From a virus (Duplodnaviria > Heunggongvirae > Uroviricota > Caudoviricetes): DNA of 25,738 nt. A program made the translations under genes and the position numbers. The DNA is taken from IMG/VR virus record IMGVR_UViG_2690316286_000008, one strand, 5' to 3'. How positions within the stretch are numbered: position 1 is the stretch's first letter; each line of letters opens with the position of its first letter. Under the pieces are notes generated by a model. The model saw only the letters and a program-made list of their open reading frames with translations. It did not search any database and was not told the origin of the DNA. Positions 4,406 to 22,823 of the stretch are shown piece after piece.

Positions 4406-4673
4406 CTGTCGTGATATCGTTGCGTAGCTGTTCACGTCGGATTTCCCCTTCCTGTTGTCGGTTCTGGCGCGCTGTCATGACGTCACGCAGTACACCGGAT
4501 GCGGTGCTGATGATGGTGCCGGCCTCTTTCAGGGTCCGGCTGTAATCGTCCAGTTGCGCCTGTGTATAACGGTTGTGTCCGTCTTCCTGCCCCAGTCTGA
4601 ATGTCTGCCAGAGTGTTATGGTCAGCAGCGTGAGGACGGTCAGTGCCATCATCAGGATGTAACGCACTTTCAT
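4200..4673 (-). CDS. lysB: Inner-membrane spanin (LysB/Rz-like)
   Basis: 157-aa ORF with N-terminal TM segment (ILMMALTVLTLLTITLW) and charged coiled-coil body; immediately downstream of endolysin K (ATGA overlap). Confidence 0.65.
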   Translation of the reverse strand: MKVRYILMMALTVLTLLTITLWQTFRLGQEDGHNRYTQAQLDDYSRTLKEAGTIISTASGVLRDVMTARQNRQQEGEIRREQLRNDITTDACARAVPDARFTERLHQHAERVRAAAVVPFHPGRADRPRTSPAVSGDAIMGKHRDMERQPHGRTGNL

Positions 4674-5218
4674 GACTGGCCTCCGGTGTCACGTAAGCAC
4701 CATGCACGAAAATCAGTACGACGGTTAACCAGTCCCTGTGAGCGTTCGCCGCCGCTGTTCACGAAGTCAGTCAGTCTGTTGCACATGTCAGGCCAGTTGT
4801 GCGCCTGTGCATGTTTCCAGATAGTGGTGCGGTGGTAGTTACGGTTCTTATCCCTGAACCACATAAGATTTCTGCATCCAAGATTAAAGGCGGCATCTGT
4901 CATTGCCTCAAACGCGGACTGTGGCATGGCGTTGCCGCTGAAGTTCTGATTTATGCAGTTTTCTGCATGTTGCATATCATTAACCCAGCGCCCGGCGACT
5001 TCCGTTTCGGTGTACAGACGATTTTCCACATGCCCGGTCGAGCCGCACCCCACGGTCATTACCCCGGCAATATCCCGGTAAGGCGTTGCGCGACAGTCCT
5101 CCCATGTGGCAATGCGGATTTGCGCTTCCGGGCTGGTCCGGAGTTTGTGAGGGGCAATGGAGAACCCCAGCGCCACAATGGCGGCTACGGCGTAACGTTT
5201 AACGGGCAGCTTTATCAT
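4670..5218 (-). CDS. K: Endolysin gpK (phage lysozyme)
   Basis: 182-aa ORF following holin; position and size match P2 K. Confidence 0.8.
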   Translation of the reverse strand: MIKLPVKRYAVAAIVALGFSIAPHKLRTSPEAQIRIATWEDCRATPYRDIAGVMTVGCGSTGHVENRLYTETEVAGRWVNDMQHAENCINQNFSGNAMPQSAFEAMTDAAFNLGCRNLMWFRDKNRNYHRTTIWKHAQAHNWPDMCNRLTDFVNSGGERSQGLVNRRTDFRAWCLRDTGGQS

Positions 5219-12130: not shown

Positions 12131-12621
12131 CGCGCTTCGCTTGTCTGCTGCTTCGCCGGGGCATAAAAAATTTATGCCCCGACTCTCCAGCTCCTGTATC
12201 AGTCAGATAATTTCACGACGCTTTCCTGCTGATTGCCATCATCGACAGTCAGACTCTTACGCAATCCCACCTCGTTGACTGCATATTCTCGCCGTCTCAG
12301 TGCGATTTTGACGGCCTTACCTTTCACCCCATCAAATCAAAAGCCCTCACGTCTTTTTCACGCTCAGCGTGAGAAATACAGCCATTCTGTTGTATCTCTG
12401 CGACATCGTTCAGGGAATGCTATTTACCCCCTGAAACGCGGGCTGTTCCCCCGTCACCTGCGCGCAGAAAAAACGCGTTTTTTTGTGCATGCACGGATCC
12501 TTGACGGATCCAGCCGCCACGCGGGCCGGAAGGGCAAAAAGTCGTTCAAAAAAATTGTGCAAATTTGTGCACTATTGTGCATTTATAAAATCAACTAAAA
12601 AACACCTAGTGTGACTTACCT
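12131..12621. other. Non-coding region expected to contain cos (packaging site), rich in palindromes and phased repeats
   Basis: Synteny (cos lies beside Q in P2); partial resemblance of reverse-complement of 12511-12523 (GCGTGGCGG) to the start of the recalled P2/186 cohesive-end sequence; not verified. Confidence 0.4.
12555..12581. repeat. Three TTGTGCA direct repeats phased at exactly 10 bp (a fourth copy at 12483-12489)
   Basis: Read directly: attgtgcaaatttgtgcactattgtgcattt. Confidence 0.85.
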
Positions 12622-12821: not shown

Positions 12822-13061
12822 CTATTTACTCTTCTCGGCCCTCAAAATCATACGAGAACCATCATCCAGCTCCCAATTAATTTCACCGCCTTCTGCCATG
12901 ACTAGATGCCAAACGAGTTGAGCGGCCTCGTTGGTTACATCGCGACCGCGATCATTTCCTACGCGGCGTTTTGTTCCGTCTCCTAAGTCACGCATTTTTG
13001 CCAATACGATGGTTTTTGATAGCGGTGAAAAACCAAGCTGTAGTCGTGCTGAATTACTCAC
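12822..13061 (-). CDS. Hypothetical small protein (79 aa, GTG start)
   Basis: GTG at 13061 overlapping stop of upstream gene (GTGA) with AAGGGGG RBS 6 nt upstream; stop TAG lies inside RBS of next gene. Confidence 0.5.
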   Translation of the reverse strand: MSNSARLQLGFSPLSKTIVLAKMRDLGDGTKRRVGNDRGRDVTNEAAQLVWHLVMAEGGEINWELDDGSRMILRAEKSK

Positions 13062-13582
13062 TGGCTGCCCCCTTTGTACTGTGTTAACTCTTCCTGCTCC
13101 TGCATCATGCGATTGACCTGAACGCGTGTGCGTCGAACGGCAAAATTAAATTGAAACATGAGCCGGAACATTTCTGATGCTTCCGTGTGAGCATCACGGA
13201 TAGGTGACAGGCGGTACAGTTCTGCCTCCGTAGCTTGTTGAATCAATGACAGATCAAATTGAAGTGCGGGTCTGGTACATTTTGCACATCTGGCAGCAAG
13301 CTCCGGTATTAGTCTCTTAACGAAGGTGTTTTGCACCGCTTTGTTGATTTGTGTCTGCATCCAAATCGCAAATTTCAGCGAACGCATAAGTTTGATAGCC
13401 TCGGGCAGCGGCAGATAGATCATGCTGGTAGATTTGGGTGGTTGGTGAACCATCTTCACGGATACGCGATTTCGCAGCGTTCGGAAAATCGTGTTCCCAA
13501 CAACAGCTTCTACGGATACAGGACAGGGAGCCAGACCAGCCCGCAGTGCTTCTTTCATTAGCATGTATTCGTATTTTTTCAT
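13058..13582 (-). CDS. Hypothetical protein (174 aa), unknown function
   Basis: ATG at 13582 with GAGGA RBS; no family recognised by eye. Confidence 0.6.
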   Translation of the reverse strand: MKKYEYMLMKEALRAGLAPCPVSVEAVVGNTIFRTLRNRVSVKMVHQPPKSTSMIYLPLPEAIKLMRSLKFAIWMQTQINKAVQNTFVKRLIPELAARCAKCTRPALQFDLSLIQQATEAELYRLSPIRDAHTEASEMFRLMFQFNFAVRRTRVQVNRMMQEQEELTQYKGGSQ

Positions 13583-13642: not shown

Positions 13643-13954
13643 TCATTCAGGAAATAATGCCCGGATATTCCCTGCTATCTGACTGGTTATCTGTGCGGTT
13701 GGTACTGGCTGTGGCACGGGGCGTTCTGTCCTGGTTTGTGTCACCGATAACGCCTCATCGTCAGCCCATGCAGCCAGTCGGTAAGCCTCTGCTGGATTCA
13801 TTTTCAGAAGTGCCAGCCCGGCCAGAAAAGCCACGCGTTGGCCGCTTTTGCGGGCTTCTGGTGTAAGGCTGCCCAGCCAGGCGCATGCTTCGCTTTCGTT
13901 CTTGACGGTCGCAGGCTTCAGATAGAAACTTATCCGTCTGGTTGGTGTCGTCAT
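13643..13954 (-). CDS. parR: ParR-like DNA-binding protein (type II partition adaptor-like), 103 aa
   Basis: ORF 13643..14089 trimmed to ATG 13954 (AGGAG RBS, 4 nt after parM stop); blocks RRISFYLKP and RVAFLAGLALL...NP parallel R1 ParR (RRTIAFKLNP, RAALTAGLALY..DP), and terminal NIRALFPE parallels ILRSLFPKE. Confidence 0.65.
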   Translation of the reverse strand: MTTPTRRISFYLKPATVKNESEACAWLGSLTPEARKSGQRVAFLAGLALLKMNPAEAYRLAAWADDEALSVTQTRTERPVPQPVPTAQITSQIAGNIRALFPE

Positions 13955-13958
13955 TGGT

Positions 13959-14918
13959 TTACTCCTTGTCCATTGCGTACAGCCCATTAACCAGAGCAAA
14001 CTGTGGCACCCCGTCCGCGATGAAAGTCGCATTAACTCCGCAGGCTTCGCGGATAGCGGGTGCCACAATCTCCGCCCCTCCACCGACAACCATCACCCGC
14101 CCGTAACCCGAAAAACCCGCCAGCGCGCGGATCACGCGTTGTTTCAGTGTTTCTTCCTTTTCACGAATAACCGCCATCAGGCTGGCGTAATGCGCGTCAT
14201 TGTGGATGTGCTGGCGCAGCCAGGCTTCATCATGGCGATGTTCGATAATGGTATTGGCGATGTGGTGACTGGTGCGCATACCGTTAGTGGCCATCACCGA
14301 CAGTACGGCATCGGCCATCAGAGAAACGCCTACGTGTGGATCGCAAAACACCTGGCTGATACCTGCCAGTTGCCCCTGAACCTTTGCCACATCCAGCGTG
14401 GTTCCGCCCAAATCCACAATCAGCAGGGATTCAAACGGACTCATGTCAGCCAGTGCCTTAAAGCCAGCCGGAATGGATTCAGGCATAACCCGCACGTTAC
14501 GGATAGTGAATGCTTCGCCGTTCTGGTACTCCACCGGGCGCATAACGTTCGCTTTTTTGCGGTTGATGTTGGCCATGTCCGGCTGTGCGTTTGTGTCGAA
14601 ATACTCGCTCAGTGGCAGGGTGACAACCACATCCACCTCCTGTGGCGTGATGCCTGATTTGACCAGCGCGTGATGAATGGCAATGACATTTACATCGCTG
14701 TACTGGTATTGCGTGTCGGTTGTCTGGACAAAGCGATCGCTGACCGGATCAAAACCATAGCGCACGCCATCAAGCATGTAGTTCGCGGGCTGCATGCCAC
14801 CGAACGGCGCAGACCATTCCGACTTGAAGCTGTTCGGGCTGATGGCGTTGCGGCGTTCGCCGTTCTCAGTCCATGCCAGCTTGATGTTGGTGGAGCCGTC
14901 GTCGATACAAATTTTCAT
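13959..14918 (-). CDS. parM: ParM/StbA-like actin-fold ATPase (319 aa)
   Basis: Translation MKICIDDGSTNIKL...YSDVNVIAIHHAL...MPESIPAG...LLIVDLGGTTLD...VMVVGGGAEIV...LVNGLYAM aligns along full length with recalled plasmid R1 ParM, including phosphate-binding and adenosine motifs. Confidence 0.85.
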   Translation of the reverse strand: MKICIDDGSTNIKLAWTENGERRNAISPNSFKSEWSAPFGGMQPANYMLDGVRYGFDPVSDRFVQTTDTQYQYSDVNVIAIHHALVKSGITPQEVDVVVTLPLSEYFDTNAQPDMANINRKKANVMRPVEYQNGEAFTIRNVRVMPESIPAGFKALADMSPFESLLIVDLGGTTLDVAKVQGQLAGISQVFCDPHVGVSLMADAVLSVMATNGMRTSHHIANTIIEHRHDEAWLRQHIHNDAHYASLMAVIREKEETLKQRVIRALAGFSGYGRVMVVGGGAEIVAPAIREACGVNATFIADGVPQFALVNGLYAMDKE

Positions 14919-14945: not shown

Positions 14946-15062
14946 ATCGTTTACGGGATTCTGAAATCCCGTTTTTGCCTGTTTTGTGCGCGCTTCATAT
15001 ATCGCTGCGCGTTTTTTGCTCATTTACGGGATTCGTGAGTCCCGTTTCTGTCTGTTTTTTGT
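14946..15062 (+). terminator. Cluster of three plus-strand hairpin+T-tract elements (two are near-identical ~40-bp copies with palindrome ACGGGATT..AATCCCGT) between parM start and end of gene A
   Basis: Read directly: tttacgggattctgaaatcccgtttttgcctgtttt (14950-14985) and tttacgggattcgtgagtcccgtttctgtctgtttttt (15023-15060), plus gcgcgc..gcgcgtttttt between. Confidence 0.55.
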
Positions 15063-17817
15063 TTCCACTGGTCAGGCCACCCCGCAGCAGGTCTGCTTTG
15101 CGGCGGGCGCGTTCAGTGGTTTCACTGATTCTCTGTGCGTGCTCTGCGTCGCGGATGGCGCGCAGCATGTCAGAAAGCACGGTAACGGGTGTTTTCATGG
15201 TGTTCTGGTCCTGCTGAAGTGTGGATGCCAGGCGTGCGGCGGCTTCAGGGTCTGATGCCCCCAGCTGTGTCAGATAGCTGGCGACCGGGTTATGGCGGAT
15301 CTCCGTGCTGCTTACGCCATGATTACGGCTCAGGCGCTGCCAGAGCTGCGTGATTCGGCTGTCCGGGCGGGTATCCGGTTTGCGTACAATTTCAAATCCC
15401 TGCGGTGCAATGATGCTGCCGTCAACGTACAGACTGCCGCCCCGTAACAGGTGCTGCATCTGTTGTTCACCGATATGCAGGCCGAGAGATTCAGCAGACT
15501 CCCGCCATTCTTTAGCGAGTAATTCGTGGTTATCAGGCAAAGGCCGCTGCTGTTTGCGGCTCTGTGTCCAGCTCTGCATTTCATCACTGCTGTTTTTTGC
15601 CTGTTTGTCACGAAGCGAACGCATCAGCGCCCGGCGTTCGTGCCGTTTCAGTGAGCGCATCCATTCATCCACATCAACGCCGTCAGGGAGCTGCGGCCAC
15701 GGTGCTGGCCGTTCTTCCGGCTGTTCTGTCCCGTTGTTGTCCGTTTCCTGTACACGGGGACAGTTATTGCCACGAGTCCAAGGGGCGGCAGGGCCGCCCT
15801 GAAGGTCAAAACCATTTTCGCGGGCGCTGTCTTCCGCTTCCGGTTTGCGTCTTACCAGCTTCCAGTTATCCGGATGCGTGCACACACGGGAGGATTCCCC
15901 GATGAGTGGTGACCAGATCCCGTAAATCTGTACGCTCTGTTCGCCGTAATCGTTCAGCTCATCGGCGAGGTCGTAGGCGGTGCGAATCAGGTAGTCTTTG
16001 CGTGGAACAAGTACGCCGCCCTGTTTCTCTATGTAGGTGGCAAAACATCCGGCATCAGCGGCGGCAAGAACCGCATCCATTGCGTCATCCTTCAGCCGTT
16101 GCGGGCCTTCCGGGTTGCGTGCCATCTGGCTGGCAAGGCGGCGCAGTTCACGCCATACCTGGCGGGAGGGGATGCCAAAGAACTGGAACTGGCGGACCCG
16201 GTGAAGGCGCGCCCAGCCGATGGCGCGTTCCACGCTCTCGGCCATTGATTTTCCGGTTTCGTGGTCAACGCGTGGCTTGCCCGTTTTCGGGTCGATGCCA
16301 TCCACGGCGCGGCTGTCCAGGTTTTTCCCGATGTAGGTGGCGATGTAGCTGGTTGGCGTGCCTTTTGAGCCGTCTACATACTCCGCCTTAAAGCGCGGAG
16401 TTATGTCATCGCCCAGCTCGTGACGATCTTCCTGAATGGCAATATCGCGGGTGTGGGACACAATGGTGTCGATTTCTTCCGGATGAGCAAAGACCATCAT
16501 ATGCCAGTGCACGGTGCCGTCATGGTGAGGCTCCGCCGTGCGGATGCCATACCAGCGCAGGCCGTCGCGGTTCAGTTTTTTGCGGACCGTCGCAAAAAAC
16601 GTGTTAACCAGGTAATCGCTGGAGTCGCGCATTGTGGCCCCGTTCCATTTGGGATTCGGATGACCGTTCTCCGTTGTGGCGTGGTATTTTGACGGGCAGG
16701 TGACAGTCAGAAACACCGCTTTGTCGCCACGGGCTTCGGCCAGAAGTTCCAGCCCCTTCATGGTGGCCATCATTTCTGCCTTACGGTGAACCGGGTTACT
16801 TACTCCCGCGTAATACACCGTCTCGAGATCAATCGTGAACCCGTCTTCATTTTCCAGCATGAAACTTTTCAGGAAATCGCGTGTTTTCTCGCGCTGTGCG
16901 CGAAACTCGCTTAACGCGTCCTGGCTCAGATAGGGCGATGTTTTTCTGGAAACCAGACAGGCGGCGCGAAGTTGTTCTTCTCTCCACTCGCAACGTAACA
17001 GCCACAGTTTGCGTTTCCACCATTCCGCACAGGTCAGGCGAAGGATTGCGCCCGGCAGCAGTTCTGTGTCCGGTTCGTGCCTCCGGTCTTTGTCTGTTGT
17101 CAGTGCGTCATAATGCGGAGGCATGGCGTGTAAGTGTAACGCCATGCGGGCCAGCATCTGATACGCCTTCAGCGTTACATCCATGGTCAGCTCGCCATCA
17201 GTCGCGCCAAAACCATCGCAGAGTTTTTCGAAGGTGCTGCTGAACATCGCCGCCGTCATGGTGGCCAGCGTCTGTATCTGGTGTTTGTTGAGTTGCGGCA
17301 GGTAAAGCAAATCGTCCAGGCGTTCACGTCCGGCAAGGGAGCGATAACCCGGTGTCAGCCAGTGTCCGTCAGTGCGATCCAGACGTTCGAATATTTTGCG
17401 CAGGGTTCCGCGTGCATAGCGTTCCGCCTGCCAGCTCTTTTTGCCTTTCCGGCGATCGGCTTCCTGTTTTTTGCGCAGGAAGGAGAGGTGGCGAATAAGC
17501 GGATCGCGCAGATAGGACGGCAGCAGGCGCAGCGAGGCCATGGCTTCATCCACCGCGCCGCGTGCCTGTTTTCTGGCGTCTCCTGCCAGTGTGATGGTTT
17601 TGTCCTGTTTTTCCTGTGCGTCCAGGCTTTTATTAATCAGGTTGCCCAGTGGCGTGGCGGAGAACGCCGCATCAGCCATTTCCTGGCGGCGCTCGTTCTC
17701 TGCCCGGTGGGCATCCAGCCAGGAGGAAAGCGCGGATTCAGGAGCGGGGATCCCCGTTCCTTCACGCCCCACTGCGTGGCGCGGTTGTTGCCAGTCCCTG
17801 ATGTACTCTGCCGTCAT
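14995..17817 (-). CDS. A: Replication initiation protein gpA (rolling-circle endonuclease) with C-terminal extension
   Basis: 940-aa ORF; HUH-like motif HDGTVHWHMMVFA and paired tyrosines SYIATYIGKN typical of P2 A family; N-terminus resembles P2 A. Confidence 0.88.
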   Translation of the reverse strand: MTAEYIRDWQQPRHAVGREGTGIPAPESALSSWLDAHRAENERRQEMADAAFSATPLGNLINKSLDAQEKQDKTITLAGDARKQARGAVDEAMASLRLLPSYLRDPLIRHLSFLRKKQEADRRKGKKSWQAERYARGTLRKIFERLDRTDGHWLTPGYRSLAGRERLDDLLYLPQLNKHQIQTLATMTAAMFSSTFEKLCDGFGATDGELTMDVTLKAYQMLARMALHLHAMPPHYDALTTDKDRRHEPDTELLPGAILRLTCAEWWKRKLWLLRCEWREEQLRAACLVSRKTSPYLSQDALSEFRAQREKTRDFLKSFMLENEDGFTIDLETVYYAGVSNPVHRKAEMMATMKGLELLAEARGDKAVFLTVTCPSKYHATTENGHPNPKWNGATMRDSSDYLVNTFFATVRKKLNRDGLRWYGIRTAEPHHDGTVHWHMMVFAHPEEIDTIVSHTRDIAIQEDRHELGDDITPRFKAEYVDGSKGTPTSYIATYIGKNLDSRAVDGIDPKTGKPRVDHETGKSMAESVERAIGWARLHRVRQFQFFGIPSRQVWRELRRLASQMARNPEGPQRLKDDAMDAVLAAADAGCFATYIEKQGGVLVPRKDYLIRTAYDLADELNDYGEQSVQIYGIWSPLIGESSRVCTHPDNWKLVRRKPEAEDSARENGFDLQGGPAAPWTRGNNCPRVQETDNNGTEQPEERPAPWPQLPDGVDVDEWMRSLKRHERRALMRSLRDKQAKNSSDEMQSWTQSRKQQRPLPDNHELLAKEWRESAESLGLHIGEQQMQHLLRGGSLYVDGSIIAPQGFEIVRKPDTRPDSRITQLWQRLSRNHGVSSTEIRHNPVASYLTQLGASDPEAAARLASTLQQDQNTMKTPVTVLSDMLRAIRDAEHAQRISETTERARRKADLLRGGLTSGNKKQTETGLTNPVNEQKTRSDI

Positions 17818-20156: not shown

Positions 20157-20251
20157 GGTGTGATAACCTATTCAATCTGGTGCTATTTGTGGCTCTTTGT
20201 AGCGTCAAGTGGCACTCAACTGATAACCAATATAGTATTCAGGTGCACACC
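20157..20251. promoter_or_regulatory. Immunity switch region (face-to-face early and repressor promoters, operator repeats)
   Basis: Between divergent cox and C; direct repeats TTTGTGGC / TTTGTAGC 10 bp apart (about 20187-20204) and TGATAACC twice (20161-20168, 20221-20228); TATAGT -10-like box at 20231-20236. Confidence 0.5.
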
Positions 20252-20563
20252 ATGTCAATAGAGATATCAAAGAAGCTAAAAGCAATTCGAGAATCTGAGG
20301 GGCTTAGTCAGGCAAAGTTCGCGGATTCAATAGGTATTGCGGTTGGTACGGTTAAGCAATACGAGACTGGTATTCGAGGTGTGGGAACGGAGGTTTTACT
20401 GAAAATCACAATGCACCCGGAATTTAAAAAATACACTACGTGGTTGATGAGTAACGAAACAAATGAGGCTGCTGGGCAGATCAGTCCTTCTCTCTCCCCT
20501 GATGGGCCAGAAAACACATCGTCTTCTCAAAAATCCCGCAAGACTGGCACACAGCCCGGCTAA
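20252..20563 (+). CDS. C: Immunity repressor C (HTH, P2 C-like), 103 aa
   Basis: ORF 20150..20563 trimmed to ATG 20252 (AGGTG RBS); helix-turn-helix block LSQAKFADSIGIAVGTVKQYETG; C-terminal ...FKKYTTWLMSNE... resembles P2 C. Confidence 0.8.
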   Translation: MSIEISKKLKAIRESEGLSQAKFADSIGIAVGTVKQYETGIRGVGTEVLLKITMHPEFKKYTTWLMSNETNEAAGQISPSLSPDGPENTSSSQKSRKTGTQPG

Positions 20564-20612: not shown

Positions 20613-21590
20613 ATGAGCATAAAATCAATTCCGGGAGGGTATCTTCTTGACATGCGTCCTGAGGGGCGTAAAGGCAAACGCATTCGCAAAAAATTTAAAA
20701 CGAAATCGGATGCAGTTTTATATGAGCGGTGGGTGCTGGCGCAACAGCATAACAATGAGTGGAAAGGAAACTCCATTGATCGCCGTCCGCTGTCAGTGCT
20801 TATTGACTTGTGGTGGAAATACCACGGCCAGCTAATGAAGTCAGGGCATAACACGCGCCTTAAATTGCTGCGCTTGAGTGAGGCAATGGATGACCCGTGC
20901 GTGCATAAACTTAATACAACGATGCTCACCGAGCTACGTGTGTCCAGGATAGAGCAGGGGATACAGCCCAGCACCATAAATCGAGAGATTGGGGCGTTAA
21001 GCGCGATGTTTACCGCACTCATCTCATCCGGCCATTTTCTTAACGATAACCCCGTTCAAGGCCTTAAAGGAATGAAGGTTAACGAGCGTGAAATGGGATA
21101 TCTGAGTAAGTCTGAATGTGTTCAGTTGCTGGATGCACTGGCTGAAAATCCCGATGAACGGCTGGCCGTCGAAATCCTTCTGTCGACCGGGGCGCGATGG
21201 GGCGAGGTAGCGGCACTGGAGCAGCGCCGTGTTCTTCATTGTCGAATCACTTTTTCAAAAACGAAGAACAGCAAAAACCGTACCGTTCCTATTTCTGAAA
21301 GCCTGTTTGAAAAGATCAAAAAACGGGGCGGGAAACTGGTGTTTCCGACGCTGGATTATTCATTGGTTCGCGATGTCATCAAAACGGTCGCACCTGATGT
21401 TCCTGACGGCCAGGCTGTTCATGCGCTGCGCCACACCTTCGCCAGTCATTTCATGATGAACGGCGGCAATATTCTGACGCTCCAGAAAATTCTGGGGCAC
21501 GCAAAGATTCAGACAACGATGATTTATGCCCATCTTGCGCCGGATTACTTGCAGGATGCGGTGAGGTTTAATCCCTTGGGAGGAATGTAA
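20613..21590 (+). CDS. int: Tyrosine integrase, P2 Int family (325 aa)
   Basis: ORF 20463..21590 trimmed to ATG 20613 (MSIKSIPGGYLLDMRPEGRKGKRIRKKF... parallels P2 Int N-terminus); catalytic motifs LSTGARWGEV, HALRHTFASHF, MIYAHLAPDYLQDA. Confidence 0.9.
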   Translation: MSIKSIPGGYLLDMRPEGRKGKRIRKKFKTKSDAVLYERWVLAQQHNNEWKGNSIDRRPLSVLIDLWWKYHGQLMKSGHNTRLKLLRLSEAMDDPCVHKLNTTMLTELRVSRIEQGIQPSTINREIGALSAMFTALISSGHFLNDNPVQGLKGMKVNEREMGYLSKSECVQLLDALAENPDERLAVEILLSTGARWGEVAALEQRRVLHCRITFSKTKNSKNRTVPISESLFEKIKKRGGKLVFPTLDYSLVRDVIKTVAPDVPDGQAVHALRHTFASHFMMNGGNILTLQKILGHAKIQTTMIYAHLAPDYLQDAVRFNPLGGM

Positions 21591-21592
21591 CT

Positions 21593-22093
21593 ATGGAAAT
21601 AAAAAAACCTACAAAAAAAGAGTTATATGACTATTTACTATCGAAATATATAGAAGATAAATGCAAAGAAGAAGCTGATGAAATCAATAAGAAGTCGATG
21701 AGTCGTGTCAAAAAACATAAAGAGCGGCTGATGGAGATTACGCCAGAAATCTTCTTCCGTTTCTTGTCTGAGAAGGGGGTCTCCAGTGTCTGCCCTTCAT
21801 GTGGATCGTCGCGATTATCTGTTCCAGAAAGTATGGATCTTTGCTGGGATAAAAATAAGAAACCAGAAAATTTTAACAATCTACCCCTGGAGGAACAGAG
21901 TGAGTTAATTAAAGAGAACATAAAGCATTATGTATCTTATGCTTTTTTGGGTGATGTTAAGAGCATACCTGATATGCGCAAAACTTATTACACGCTGCAT
22001 TGCCTGAATTGTGGTTACCTGAGCCTTTATCGTACGTCTGCGGTGCTGAAGTGGTTGGAGAAAGACAAAGCGCAGGATGGTGATAATGGGTAA
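21593..22093 (+). CDS. AT-rich zinc-ribbon protein (166 aa), unknown function
   Basis: ATG 2 nt after int stop, GGGAGGAA RBS inside int 3' end; CPSCG...CLNCG motifs; Lys/Glu-rich N-terminus; low G+C relative to flanks. Confidence 0.6.
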   Translation: MEIKKPTKKELYDYLLSKYIEDKCKEEADEINKKSMSRVKKHKERLMEITPEIFFRFLSEKGVSSVCPSCGSSRLSVPESMDLCWDKNKKPENFNNLPLEEQSELIKENIKHYVSYAFLGDVKSIPDMRKTYYTLHCLNCGYLSLYRTSAVLKWLEKDKAQDGDNG

Positions 22094-22631
22094 TGTAGCA
22101 AGAAATCTTTTCGGTAATTCAGCAGGTAGTGTGTCGCATTCTGAGCGTGATGTGCTTTATCATGGTGGCGATGGCGGCAGTAGTGGAGGCGGAATGTCAG
22201 ATAAACTTGAAAGGCGAATTGAGCGGCTCGAAGGTGATTTATCGCTAACAAGAAACGACCTTGCGACGCTTGCTGAACGCACTACAAACCTCTCAACTAA
22301 AGCCGATGTTGGTGAGGTGAAAGGTGAACTCAAAGCAGACATAGCACATCTGAAAGGTGATCTTGAATGCGATATTGCGAATCTGAAAGGTGAGCTTAAA
22401 TCTGATACAGCTAACCTGAAAGAGCAGCTCAAATCAGACATTAACAGCCTGAAGGGTGAGCTTACCGAAGCGATGGATAAACGCTTTGACAAGATTATGG
22501 ATGAGATGAATCGGCGGTTTGACAAGGTTGATGATAATACGAAGTGGCGTTGGAGTGGCATTATTGTGCCAGTGTGCACAACCATTTTCACAGCGGCGGT
22601 TGCTGTATTTGTTGCTAAATTTGTTGGCTGA
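22077..22631 (+). CDS. Coiled-coil protein with C-terminal transmembrane anchor (184 aa from first ATG; 145 aa if start is ATG 22194 with GGAGG RBS)
   Basis: Repeated LKGELK/LKGDLE heptad-like units then hydrophobic tail WSGIIVPVCTTIFTAAVAVFVAKFVG; overlaps upstream gene stop; architecture resembles DUF1640/XhlA-like tail-anchored proteins. Confidence 0.6.
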   Translation: MVIMGNVARNLFGNSAGSVSHSERDVLYHGGDGGSSGGGMSDKLERRIERLEGDLSLTRNDLATLAERTTNLSTKADVGEVKGELKADIAHLKGDLECDIANLKGELKSDTANLKEQLKSDINSLKGELTEAMDKRFDKIMDEMNRRFDKVDDNTKWRWSGIIVPVCTTIFTAAVAVFVAKFVG

Positions 22632-22740
22632 TGATCCACAAATTGACCACATCTCTGTTATTTGTTGTGGTTGGCTGTGTTTTTGTGTGTCTGTAAGTCT
22701 TTGATAATTACCTAACTTATTGATTTTTGTTTGTGTTTAT

Positions 22741-22767
22741 GGCCGCTCTGCGGCCTTTTTTCTTTTC
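22741..22767 (+). terminator. Rho-independent terminator-like hairpin upstream of btuC
   Basis: GGCCGC-tct-GCGGCC stem followed by TTTTTTCTTTT. Confidence 0.55.
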
Positions 22768-22823
22768 ACTGTCGAAGAGTCACCGTAAAATCAACGCCAT
22801 GACACTTCAGCAGAACGGATACC

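Follow-up and report, generated by a model that had tools for sequence, protein, structure and literature searches.

A predicted zinc-ribbon gene and a gene for a putative membrane-anchored stalk protein form an exchangeable cassette behind the integrase of a P2-like prophage of Escherichia coli

The subject of this report is a pair of small genes, called here gene 1 and gene 2, which follow the integrase gene (int) of a P2-like prophage in the viral record IMGVR_UViG_2690316286_000008 (Caudoviricetes). The whole stretch of DNA that was analysed, 25,738 nucleotides (nt) in length, is referred to as the window. Where queried, it is 99.9-100% identical to the chromosome of E. coli O26 strain RM8426, and it comprises the right two-thirds of the prophage together with the junction with the host genes btuC-btuE-btuD-nlpC. 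The btuC side is matched by all 5426 complete E. coli genomes, and prophage-free genomes, e.g. that of K-12, align with the window from position 22741 onward only, which places the end of the prophage at ca. 22740. Gene 1 and gene 2 are accessory cargo located within the prophage, between the int stop codon and the attR arm; ETEC1739, which carries other cargo, aligns with the window from 22631 onward. An earlier note on this DNA had allowed for the pair being a host gene remnant, which was not found, since the homology to K-12 begins only at 22741. Judging from sequence comparison, the pair belongs to a family of cassettes that recur in temperate phages of enterobacteria, in which a zinc-ribbon gene is followed by a coupled gene for a coiled-coil protein with a predicted membrane anchor.

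Gene 1 starts 2 nt downstream of the int stop codon (TAA, 21588-21590), with its ribosome-binding site inside int. The G+C content of its first 100 nt is 24.0%, and gene 1 as a whole, with 38.5%, is the lowest 500-nt stretch of the prophage part of the window, for which 500-nt windows give a mean of 53.4 ± 4.9% and only 0.2% of them are as low as gene 1. The G+C contents of gene 2, int, and btuC are 45%, 49%, and 55%, respectively. The earlier note had described a strongly AT-rich gene lying 2 nt behind int, with its ribosome-binding site within int and with about a quarter of G+C in the first 100 nt, a description borne out in each of these points. Among five E. coli alleles the ratio of non-synonymous to synonymous polymorphism (pN/pS) is 0.12 for gene 1, 0.17 for the N-terminal extension of gene 2 (N-extension), and 0.20 for the rest of gene 2, the value for the int tail in the same alleles being 0.20; the low pN/pS means that both open reading frames (ORFs) are real genes under purifying selection. 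Two antisense ORFs (21631-21921 and 22160-22639, both on the minus strand) were rejected on account of the homologues and the low pN/pS of the plus-strand frames. The features of the locus are collected in Table 1.

Table 1. Features of the gene pair and its surroundings (positions in the window; aa, amino acids)
Feature	Position	Strand	Basis or remark
Pc-like sigma-70 promoter upstream of the repressor gene	20209..20236	+	Consensus scan
P2 C-type immunity repressor (HTH_3)	20252..20563	+	Pfam HTH_3 E=1e-9; phrog_147 E=5e-34; RefSeq 'helix-turn-helix transcriptional regulator'
Tyrosine integrase (int) of P2-like prophage	20613..21590	+	Pfam Int_N, Phage_integrase; phrog_1; RefSeq 'phage integrase'
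Gene 1 Shine-Dalgarno sequence GGGAGG, within the last codons of int	21578..21583	+	Sequence reading
Gene 1, predicted 166-aa soluble zinc-ribbon protein	21593..22093	+	phrog_4293 E=8e-23
First putative zinc knuckle C67-P-S-C70-G71 (CPSCG, residues 67-71)	21791..21805	+	C67, C70 invariant
Second putative zinc knuckle C137-L-N-C140-G141 (CLNCG, residues 137-141)	22001..22015	+	C137, C140 invariant
Gene 2, long form, 181 aa	22086..22631	+	Start overlaps gene 1 stop by 8 nt (ATGGGTAA)
Gene 2 N-extension, 36 codons, predicted disordered: SERDVLY, then glycine hinge GGDGGSSGGG	22086..22193	+	AlphaFold2 predicted local distance difference test (pLDDT) <50, residues 1-31
Internal GGAGG (22185-22189) and ATG 22194 of the candidate 145-aa short form	22185..22196	+	RefSeq coding sequence start; Met37 nearly invariant
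Beta-layer-type motif L-S-T-K-A-D-V, stalk start	22290..22310	+	T71, K72, D74 nearly invariant; AlphaFold2 helix break at 68-71
Five 11-residue repeats (LKGELKxDIAx type), predicted coiled-coil stalk	22317..22478	+	Tandem Repeats Finder; alignment to PDB 6H9L repeats
Predicted C-terminal transmembrane helix, residues 159-177 of 181	22560..22616	+	Kyte-Doolittle 19-mer maximum 2.43; AlphaFold2 helix 153-180
Phage-derived attR arm, 32% G+C	22632..22740	+	Common to prophages with different cargo
Host intrinsic terminator downstream of ihfA, prophage/host junction	22741..22765	+	Terminator scan: 6 G-C pairs, then T-run; K-12 homology begins here

The product of gene 1 is built of a long N-terminal helix, a CxxCG knuckle, an insert of about 66 aa, a second CxxCG knuckle, a C-terminal helix, and an acidic tail; the two knuckles had already been recognised in the earlier note. 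The AlphaFold2 model (mean pLDDT 82.8) joins the long N-terminal helix, a beta-rich zinc-ribbon core with the insert, and the C-terminal helix. Across 63 relatives of gene 1 only the four cysteines of the knuckles and Trp154 are invariant; conservation further extends to a block VTPExFxxFLxEKG preceding the first knuckle and a block YxxxCxNCG...VxxWxE that encloses the second one, with the acidic tail behind it. With both CxxC knuckles conserved and the predicted fold joining them, the protein can be regarded as a zinc ribbon in the generic sense. Relatives are few: among 5.8 billion proteins searched by word index there were 18 close ones, which came exclusively from E. coli, Shigella, Salmonella, and Providencia, while a profile search of 1.84 billion cluster representatives gave remote relatives in only 90 clusters, all of them single-domain proteins of 57-180 aa. 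An alignment search of species-representative genomes matched only 2 genomes, and tblastn matched neither gene 1 nor its lambdoid version to any of 50,697 phage records. Gene 1, a 'hypothetical protein' in RefSeq, does not pass the threshold of any family in Pfam, NCBIfam, or PADLOC; Zn_ribbon_13 and other zinc-ribbon models of Pfam match it below threshold, and PHROG 4293, which takes it in, is a group of unknown function. The structure matches in BFVD, which include TFIIS-type and zinc-binding proteins, are not significant, and the profile of gene 1 relatives finds nothing below E=0.5 among the PDB sequences.

In the AlphaFold2 model of the 181-aa gene 2 product, a disordered segment (residues 1-36) is followed by a helix (37-67), a break at LSTKAD, a second helix (72-146) with the five repeats, and the transmembrane (TM) helix. 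The repeats of the LKGELK type and the C-terminal TM helix, both seen in the earlier note, are supported by Tandem Repeats Finder, which gives a tandem repeat with a period of 33 bp (11 aa) at 22318-22422, and by the hydropathy maximum given in Table 1. The length of close homologues varies in steps of 11 residues, with from 1 to 7 copies of the repeat. The TM helix is preceded by KWRW, in which W154 is nearly invariant, and followed by only four residues, KFVG; owing to the positive charge in front of the helix and the minimal C-terminal tail, the stalk should be located on the cytoplasmic side according to the positive-inside rule. It is probably trimeric. The profile of gene 2 homologues matches chain A of the three-chain PDB entry 6H9L with E=1.3e-6, repeat aligned on repeat; apart from this stalk, no known fold is matched by either protein. 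Sub-threshold matches of gene 2 to other coiled-coil proteins (apolipoprotein, Mer2, LmuB, ZorA) were treated as compositional noise, and its assignment as a holin or an XhlA-like lysis protein was rejected, the respective PHROG matches being weak and the genes lying outside the lysis cassette.

Gene 2 can be classified by its sequence as a head-less relative of the DUF1640/CCDC90 proteins (PF07798), a family comprising human MCUR1 and CCDC90B and the trimeric stalk of PDB 6H9L. It shares with them the stalk with the T-K-x-D motif, the 11-residue repeats aligning to those of 6H9L, and the C-terminal TM helix, which is found in all 12 lineages of the cassette described below. RefSeq names gene 2 a 'DUF1640 domain-containing' or 'CCDC90 family' protein. 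Its match to PF07798 stays below the gathering cut-off (24.1 bits vs 33.5 bits; E=3.7e-5) and covers profile positions 68-170 of 175, i.e. the stalk and TM part only; two relatives score 33.1 bits (P0042) and 41.0 bits (P0057). A beta-layer motif, [aliphatic]-A-T-K-[polar]-[DE], has been described for DUF1640 membrane proteins (PMC4786415). Gene 2 has it in the form L-S-T-K-A-D, with Ser for Ala, and in relatives it reads FATKSD or FATKAD, six times over in locus L023. Unlike the DUF1640 proteins, gene 2 codes for no N-terminal head, in place of which there are the 36-aa disordered extension and the glycine hinge, and it differs also in its obligate pairing with a zinc-ribbon gene and its carriage on temperate phages.

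The integrase of the window was found in 299 of the 5426 E. coli genomes, and the cargo following it varies. The exact pair of the window, designated class A, is present in only 23 of these 299 genomes. In 16 further genomes a chimera was found (class C), in which a different zinc-ribbon gene, of 132 aa, and a different N-extension are joined to the same stalk: the stalks of classes A and C are about 98% identical in DNA, and the junction falls within the glycine hinge, at window positions 22173-22181. Gene 1 and the N-extension of gene 2 are thus exchanged as one unit onto a near-identical stalk. Class B comprises a 120-aa zinc-ribbon protein and a 145-aa hinge/stalk/TM protein that belong to the same families and are highly divergent, and the commonest cargo is a single unrelated gene of 131 aa (e.g. 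locus L015, 4486-4881); the genome counts, 86 for class B and 158 for the 131-aa gene, are upper limits for the int-attR site. A rare other cargo is a pair of genes for 257 aa and 125 aa (L018, 4477-5617). The 257-aa, 125-aa, and 131-aa proteins have no Pfam or PADLOC match. Beside btuC, no fewer than five types of cargo were met behind this int, with left breakpoints at int nt 962-978, i.e. in its last 16 nt, and right breakpoints within 2 nt of the gene 2 stop codon, at window position 22631. The cassette family fills about 40% of this slot in E. coli and recurs in prophages of Salmonella, Klebsiella, and Providencia. The earlier note had seen in the composition a sign of recent horizontal acquisition; the composition is atypical and the pair is exchangeable accessory cargo, but the picture of a one-off recent acquisition gives way to that of a recurrent cassette family.

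It is worth mentioning that the intact 132-aa gene 1 of class C, which overlaps the 3' end of int, is omitted by RefSeq in strains 2D (L002, 4522-4920) and DEC5B (L016, about 4480-4878), so that this gene is missing from some genome annotations; in the records of both strains the annotation of gene 2 begins no earlier than the internal Met.

A zinc-ribbon gene followed by a coupled gene for a hinge/stalk/TM protein, with a stop/start overlap of 0-11 nt, was found in 12 divergent lineages ranging from Providencia to Klebsiella. The Salmonella version adjoins btuC, the Klebsiella version is located in a P2-like element, and the Providencia version lies near ogr. In three phage types, P2-like, 186-like, and Rac-like lambdoid, the pair is situated directly downstream of the immunity repressor and co-oriented with it: in a 186-like prophage it lies between cI and int, and in a Rac-like lambdoid prophage (L028) immediately downstream of a CI-type repressor, the position of rexAB in lambda. 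Salmonella phage SPN3UB carries the pair as gp24/gp25, and Klebsiella phages also carry versions of it; none of the P2-like coliphage isolates among the 50,697 phage records has the pair, which in that group was met in prophages only. Gene 1 is almost always accompanied by its partner; it was seen partnerless in one case, beside type I-F csy genes and with a 55-aa hydrophobic ORF downstream.

Several of these loci have peculiarities of their own. The partnerless, distant relative of gene 1 (L026, 2537-7240) codes for 147 aa; the csy1-csy4 genes follow it closely downstream, and neither cas1 nor cas2-3 is seen in the locus. In a chromosomal version of the pair on an IMG/VR contig (L053, 2497-5782, beside hinT-ycfL-lpoB) two insertion sequence (IS) elements, with IS256-like and IS5-like transposases, truncate gene 1, and the coupled gene 2 (141 aa) beside it is intact. 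The lambdoid partners of gene 1 (L028, 5377-5931, and L029, 5377-5907) have no glycine hinge and carry a periplasmic (PA)n repeat after the TM helix, the copy number of which differs, giving a partner of 184 aa in L028 and of 176 aa in L029. In the 186-like prophage L023 (5431-6063) gene 2 comprises six tandem ATK(A/S)DLQ units, and in L024 (5431-5983) it is split into two ORFs inside the ATK(A/S)DLQ array, which suggests repeat-mediated frameshifting or decay. Moreover, in L023 (3804-4896) two small envelope proteins are encoded on the same strand between cI and the pair, one of 135 aa with a signal-peptide-like N-terminus and the other of 203 aa with a Flk_N domain and a C-terminal TM helix (tail-anchored).

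The start of gene 2, left ambiguous between 22077, 22086, and 22194 in the earlier note, can be resolved by comparison of these versions. In RefSeq it is placed at 22194, giving 145 aa and no overlap with gene 1, so that the overlap of the two genes claimed in that note holds for a start at 22077 or 22086 and fails for the RefSeq one; the comparative evidence favours 22086. The downstream gene starts 8 nt before the gene 1 stop codon (once 4, once 11, and once 1 nt) in the versions from Salmonella, Providencia, and other E. coli lineages, in the 186-like and lambdoid ones, in SPN3UB, and in a chromosomal copy, while in the class C and Klebsiella versions it starts with GTG abutting the stop codon of gene 1. 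The stretch between the 22086-type start and the internal Met comprises 27-38 codons and is free of stop codons in all 14 loci compared, the other frames having 1-8; shuffling puts the probability of such an open frame at 0.04-0.17 for a single locus, with some ten of the lineages divergent from one another. At the protein level the N-extension shows a loose (E/D)RD(V/F)x(L/Y) motif and the glycine hinge. A start at 22086, conserved in every lineage, is on these comparative grounds a genuine start of gene 2, and the public annotation, in which gene 2 lacks 36 N-terminal codons, would be corrected accordingly. A start at 22077 was rejected, its equivalent being absent in Providencia and the 8-nt overlap of the 22086 type being conserved.

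The good ribosome-binding site in front of 22194, to which the earlier note had drawn attention, is conserved as well: 10 of 11 variants have GGAGG at a distance of 4-7 nt in front of the internal ATG, and it makes use of the rare glycine codon GGA, the neighbouring glycines being encoded by GGT or GGC. Since the starts at 22086 and 22194 are both conserved, the strong site at 22194 does not mark the sole start; it is probably a second one, in which case the gene would give two isoforms, of 181 aa and 145 aa.

As to expression, the Pc-like promoter in front of the repressor gene is opposed, as in P2, by a minus-strand Pe-like promoter (20258-20229), and the consensus scan finds no other promoter-like site on the plus strand between the Pc-like promoter and the gene pair. 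The first strong plus-strand terminator after that promoter is the host one at 22741. The Shine-Dalgarno sequence of gene 1 within int, the coupled starts, the lack of an intervening promoter-like site, and the terminator at 22741 suggest that the cassette forms the distal end of the repressor-integrase operon and as such would be made in the lysogen; expression of the pair in lysogens is thus probable. The co-orientation of the pair behind the repressor in the 186-like and lambdoid contexts fits, and so supports, an operon of this kind.

The pair may be a lysogenic-conversion module directed against other phages, acting by exclusion or abortive infection, which is proposed here tentatively, as the most plausible of the readings considered, though somewhat short of probable. 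A transcript from the Pc-like promoter would comprise the repressor gene, int, gene 1, and gene 2, and would be expressed in the lysogen. The gene 2 product would be a tail-anchored inner-membrane protein, with its stalk extending into the cytoplasm and the flexible N-extension at the tip, on which the zinc-ribbon protein would dock and so be tethered under the membrane; the N-extension is proposed as the docking site because it is exchanged together with gene 1 as one unit onto the same stalk. Such a complex would be held at the cytoplasmic face, where phage DNA enters, and could act either by exclusion at DNA entry or as a Rex-like sensor with a membrane effector leading to abortive infection. 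The internal start would give a short stalk without the docking extension, and the ratio of the long to the short form could tune the activity.

By analogy, the pair has the hallmarks of lysogenic-conversion genes such as old, tin, and fun of P2: it occupies a cargo slot, can be dispensed with, is atypical in composition, and is linked to the immunity operon. Its location behind immunity repressors in three phage types lends contextual support to a role in exclusion or abortive infection. A 2026 study lists the interval between int and att as a minor one among the defence hotspots of P2-like phages, with 3% of the P2 defence systems, and six of eight randomly chosen P4 satellites whose defence loci carry genes of unknown function protected against phages (PMC13586616). 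A number of results, however, weigh against a role in defence. Neither protein matches a defence model of PADLOC-DB v2.0.0, and neither do their divergent versions, the best scores being E=0.005 for gene 1 (DUF3800_VII, 14 bits) and at most 21 bits for gene 2 (the coiled-coil proteins LmuB and ZorA); Pfam and NCBIfam, too, gave nothing informative for gene 1, gene 2, or the divergent versions. The literature searched for DUF1640/CCDC90 in connection with phages or prophages, for the protein accessions, and for tail-anchored exclusion proteins holds no functional study. A single C-terminal TM helix with a periplasmic tail of four residues would make an unusual effector. The pair family and the 131-aa gene together fill about 95% of the slot occurrences, and a slot of such low diversity looks less like a classic, hyper-variable defence hotspot. 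Finally, stand-alone pairs are found in chromosomal loci outside prophages and defence islands.

Some features of the pair would also suit a toxin-antitoxin-like addiction module stabilising the prophage, with the stalk as the toxic effector, the zinc-ribbon protein as its neutraliser, and any effect on other phages being secondary. As in type II toxin-antitoxin operons, two small, translationally coupled genes are concerned, which stand in the antitoxin-then-toxin order with the stop/start overlap of 0-11 nt in all lineages, are mobile, and occur also as stand-alone pairs in chromosomes; moreover, gene 1 and the N-extension of gene 2 co-vary. A module of this kind is nevertheless unlikely: Pfam, PADLOC, and NCBIfam give no similarity to known toxin or antitoxin families or domains, gene 1 has no recognisable helix-turn-helix or ribbon-helix-helix autoregulatory domain, no dedicated promoter-like site was detected in front of the pair, and the persistence of an intact gene 2 beside the IS-truncated gene 1 in L053 is something that a lethal toxin should not allow. 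It is likewise rather improbable that the cassette is a non-defence lysogenic-conversion or self-regulatory module, in which the stalk would serve as a membrane scaffold sequestering the zinc-ribbon protein or a host factor, influencing the physiology of the host or the induction, integration, or excision of the prophage. A scaffold role has been proposed for eukaryotic DUF1640 proteins such as MCUR1, and the homology of the stalk to the DUF1640/CCDC90 family, the location of the pair in a repressor/integrase operon in three phage types, and the small diversity of cargo in the slot would all be in keeping with it. On the other hand, the N-terminal head domain by which DUF1640 proteins bind their partners is absent from gene 2, no DNA-binding or regulatory domain was detected, and, being absent from many prophages that carry the same int, the pair is not required for the life cycle of the phage.

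The possibility that the two ORFs are decaying or non-functional DNA, be it a host gene remnant or spurious frames in an AT-rich att arm, could draw on the sparse annotation, gene 1 being only 'hypothetical' in RefSeq and its class C homologue unannotated in two genomes. It is effectively refuted by the conservation and selection data taken together, since host homology starts only at 22741, pN/pS is 0.12-0.20, four Cys and one Trp are invariant across the 63 relatives, the AlphaFold2 model of gene 1 is confident, and the pair is conserved from Providencia to Klebsiella.

As a candidate exclusion pair, gene 1 and gene 2 resemble in layout RexA/RexB of lambda and similar repressor-linked pairs of a sensor and a membrane protein, likewise encoded by two co-oriented genes after the immunity repressor, with one soluble and one inner-membrane product, which the phage can do without and which are not present throughout. 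The sequences are not similar, no Pfam or PHROG match to Rex proteins having been obtained, and RexB is a multi-pass protein, whereas the gene 2 product has one C-terminal TM helix. The P2 genes old, tin, and fun(Z) resemble the pair in being low-(G+C) accessory cargo of a P2-like prophage, but the Old, Tin, and Fun proteins are unrelated to the products of gene 1 and gene 2. As in the P2 defence hotspots, the cargo is swapped between conserved flanks, and the pair lies inside the element, between int (21590) and att; the main hotspot, Q-A, is a different slot and is occupied in this prophage by ParM/StbB-like genes. The glo gene of Vibrio phage K139 is an exclusion gene between the repressor gene and int of a P2-related phage, and Glo is a single periplasmic protein. 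The pair is like glo in being accessory to the repressor-int lysogeny operon of a phage of the P2 family. A cI-int hotspot is known in K139-like phages (Rousset 2022, PMC9122126). The two conserved in-frame starts of gene 2, from which N-terminal isoforms of a small membrane protein could arise, bring to mind the holin-antiholin pair S105/S107 of lambda as far as the dual start is concerned; there, the starts are 2 codons apart as against 36 in gene 2, the TM helix of which is C-terminal and which is not part of a lysis cassette. S105/S107 is a membrane protein with a dual start.

It is established that the cargo of P2-like prophages and P4-like satellites yields new anti-phage systems. The kind of element described here, accessory cargo in a P2 hotspot that may serve as an exclusion module, is a known one, while no description of the components, their obligate pairing, the conserved dual start, or the variation in repeat number was found in the literature searched. 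If the pair is an exclusion system, its architecture, a soluble zinc-ribbon protein together with a tail-anchored stalk and an unusual conserved dual start, would be new, and the DUF1640 proteins of bacteria would gain a role. The more far-reaching proposal of a new family of immunity modules, in which a membrane-tethered zinc-ribbon sensor, a trimeric DUF1640-type stalk with dual-start isoforms, and a length variable by repeats would block or abort infection, is doubtful as a whole; were it true, the prokaryotic relatives of mitochondrial MCUR1/CCDC90B, proteins that are themselves still debated, would for the first time have a functional partner and a role.

Other regions of the window deserve a mention. 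At the host junction, the only match of the Rfam scan was a sub-threshold one to the enterobacterial small RNA STnc540 (22700-22823; 22.1 bits vs a gathering score of 38, E=0.076), which covers the attR arm, the host terminator, and the btuC leader, and the prophage may be inserted into or beside the STnc540 locus. The main P2 cargo hotspot (13646-14918, minus strand), situated between the portal/terminase genes and the replication endonuclease gene, holds genes for a ParM/StbA-like actin ATPase of 319 aa (StbA_N, E=3e-82) and a Plasmid_stab_B protein of 148 aa; such plasmid-partition-like cargo is present in about a quarter of P2-like phages (Rousset et al. 2022, PMC9122126). Two ORFs near this hotspot (12233-12598, plus strand, and 13058-13582, minus strand) are without a Pfam match. 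The replication endonuclease (gpA-like) ORF (14995-17817, minus strand) codes for 940 aa, the gpA protein of P2 being markedly shorter, with about 760 aa.

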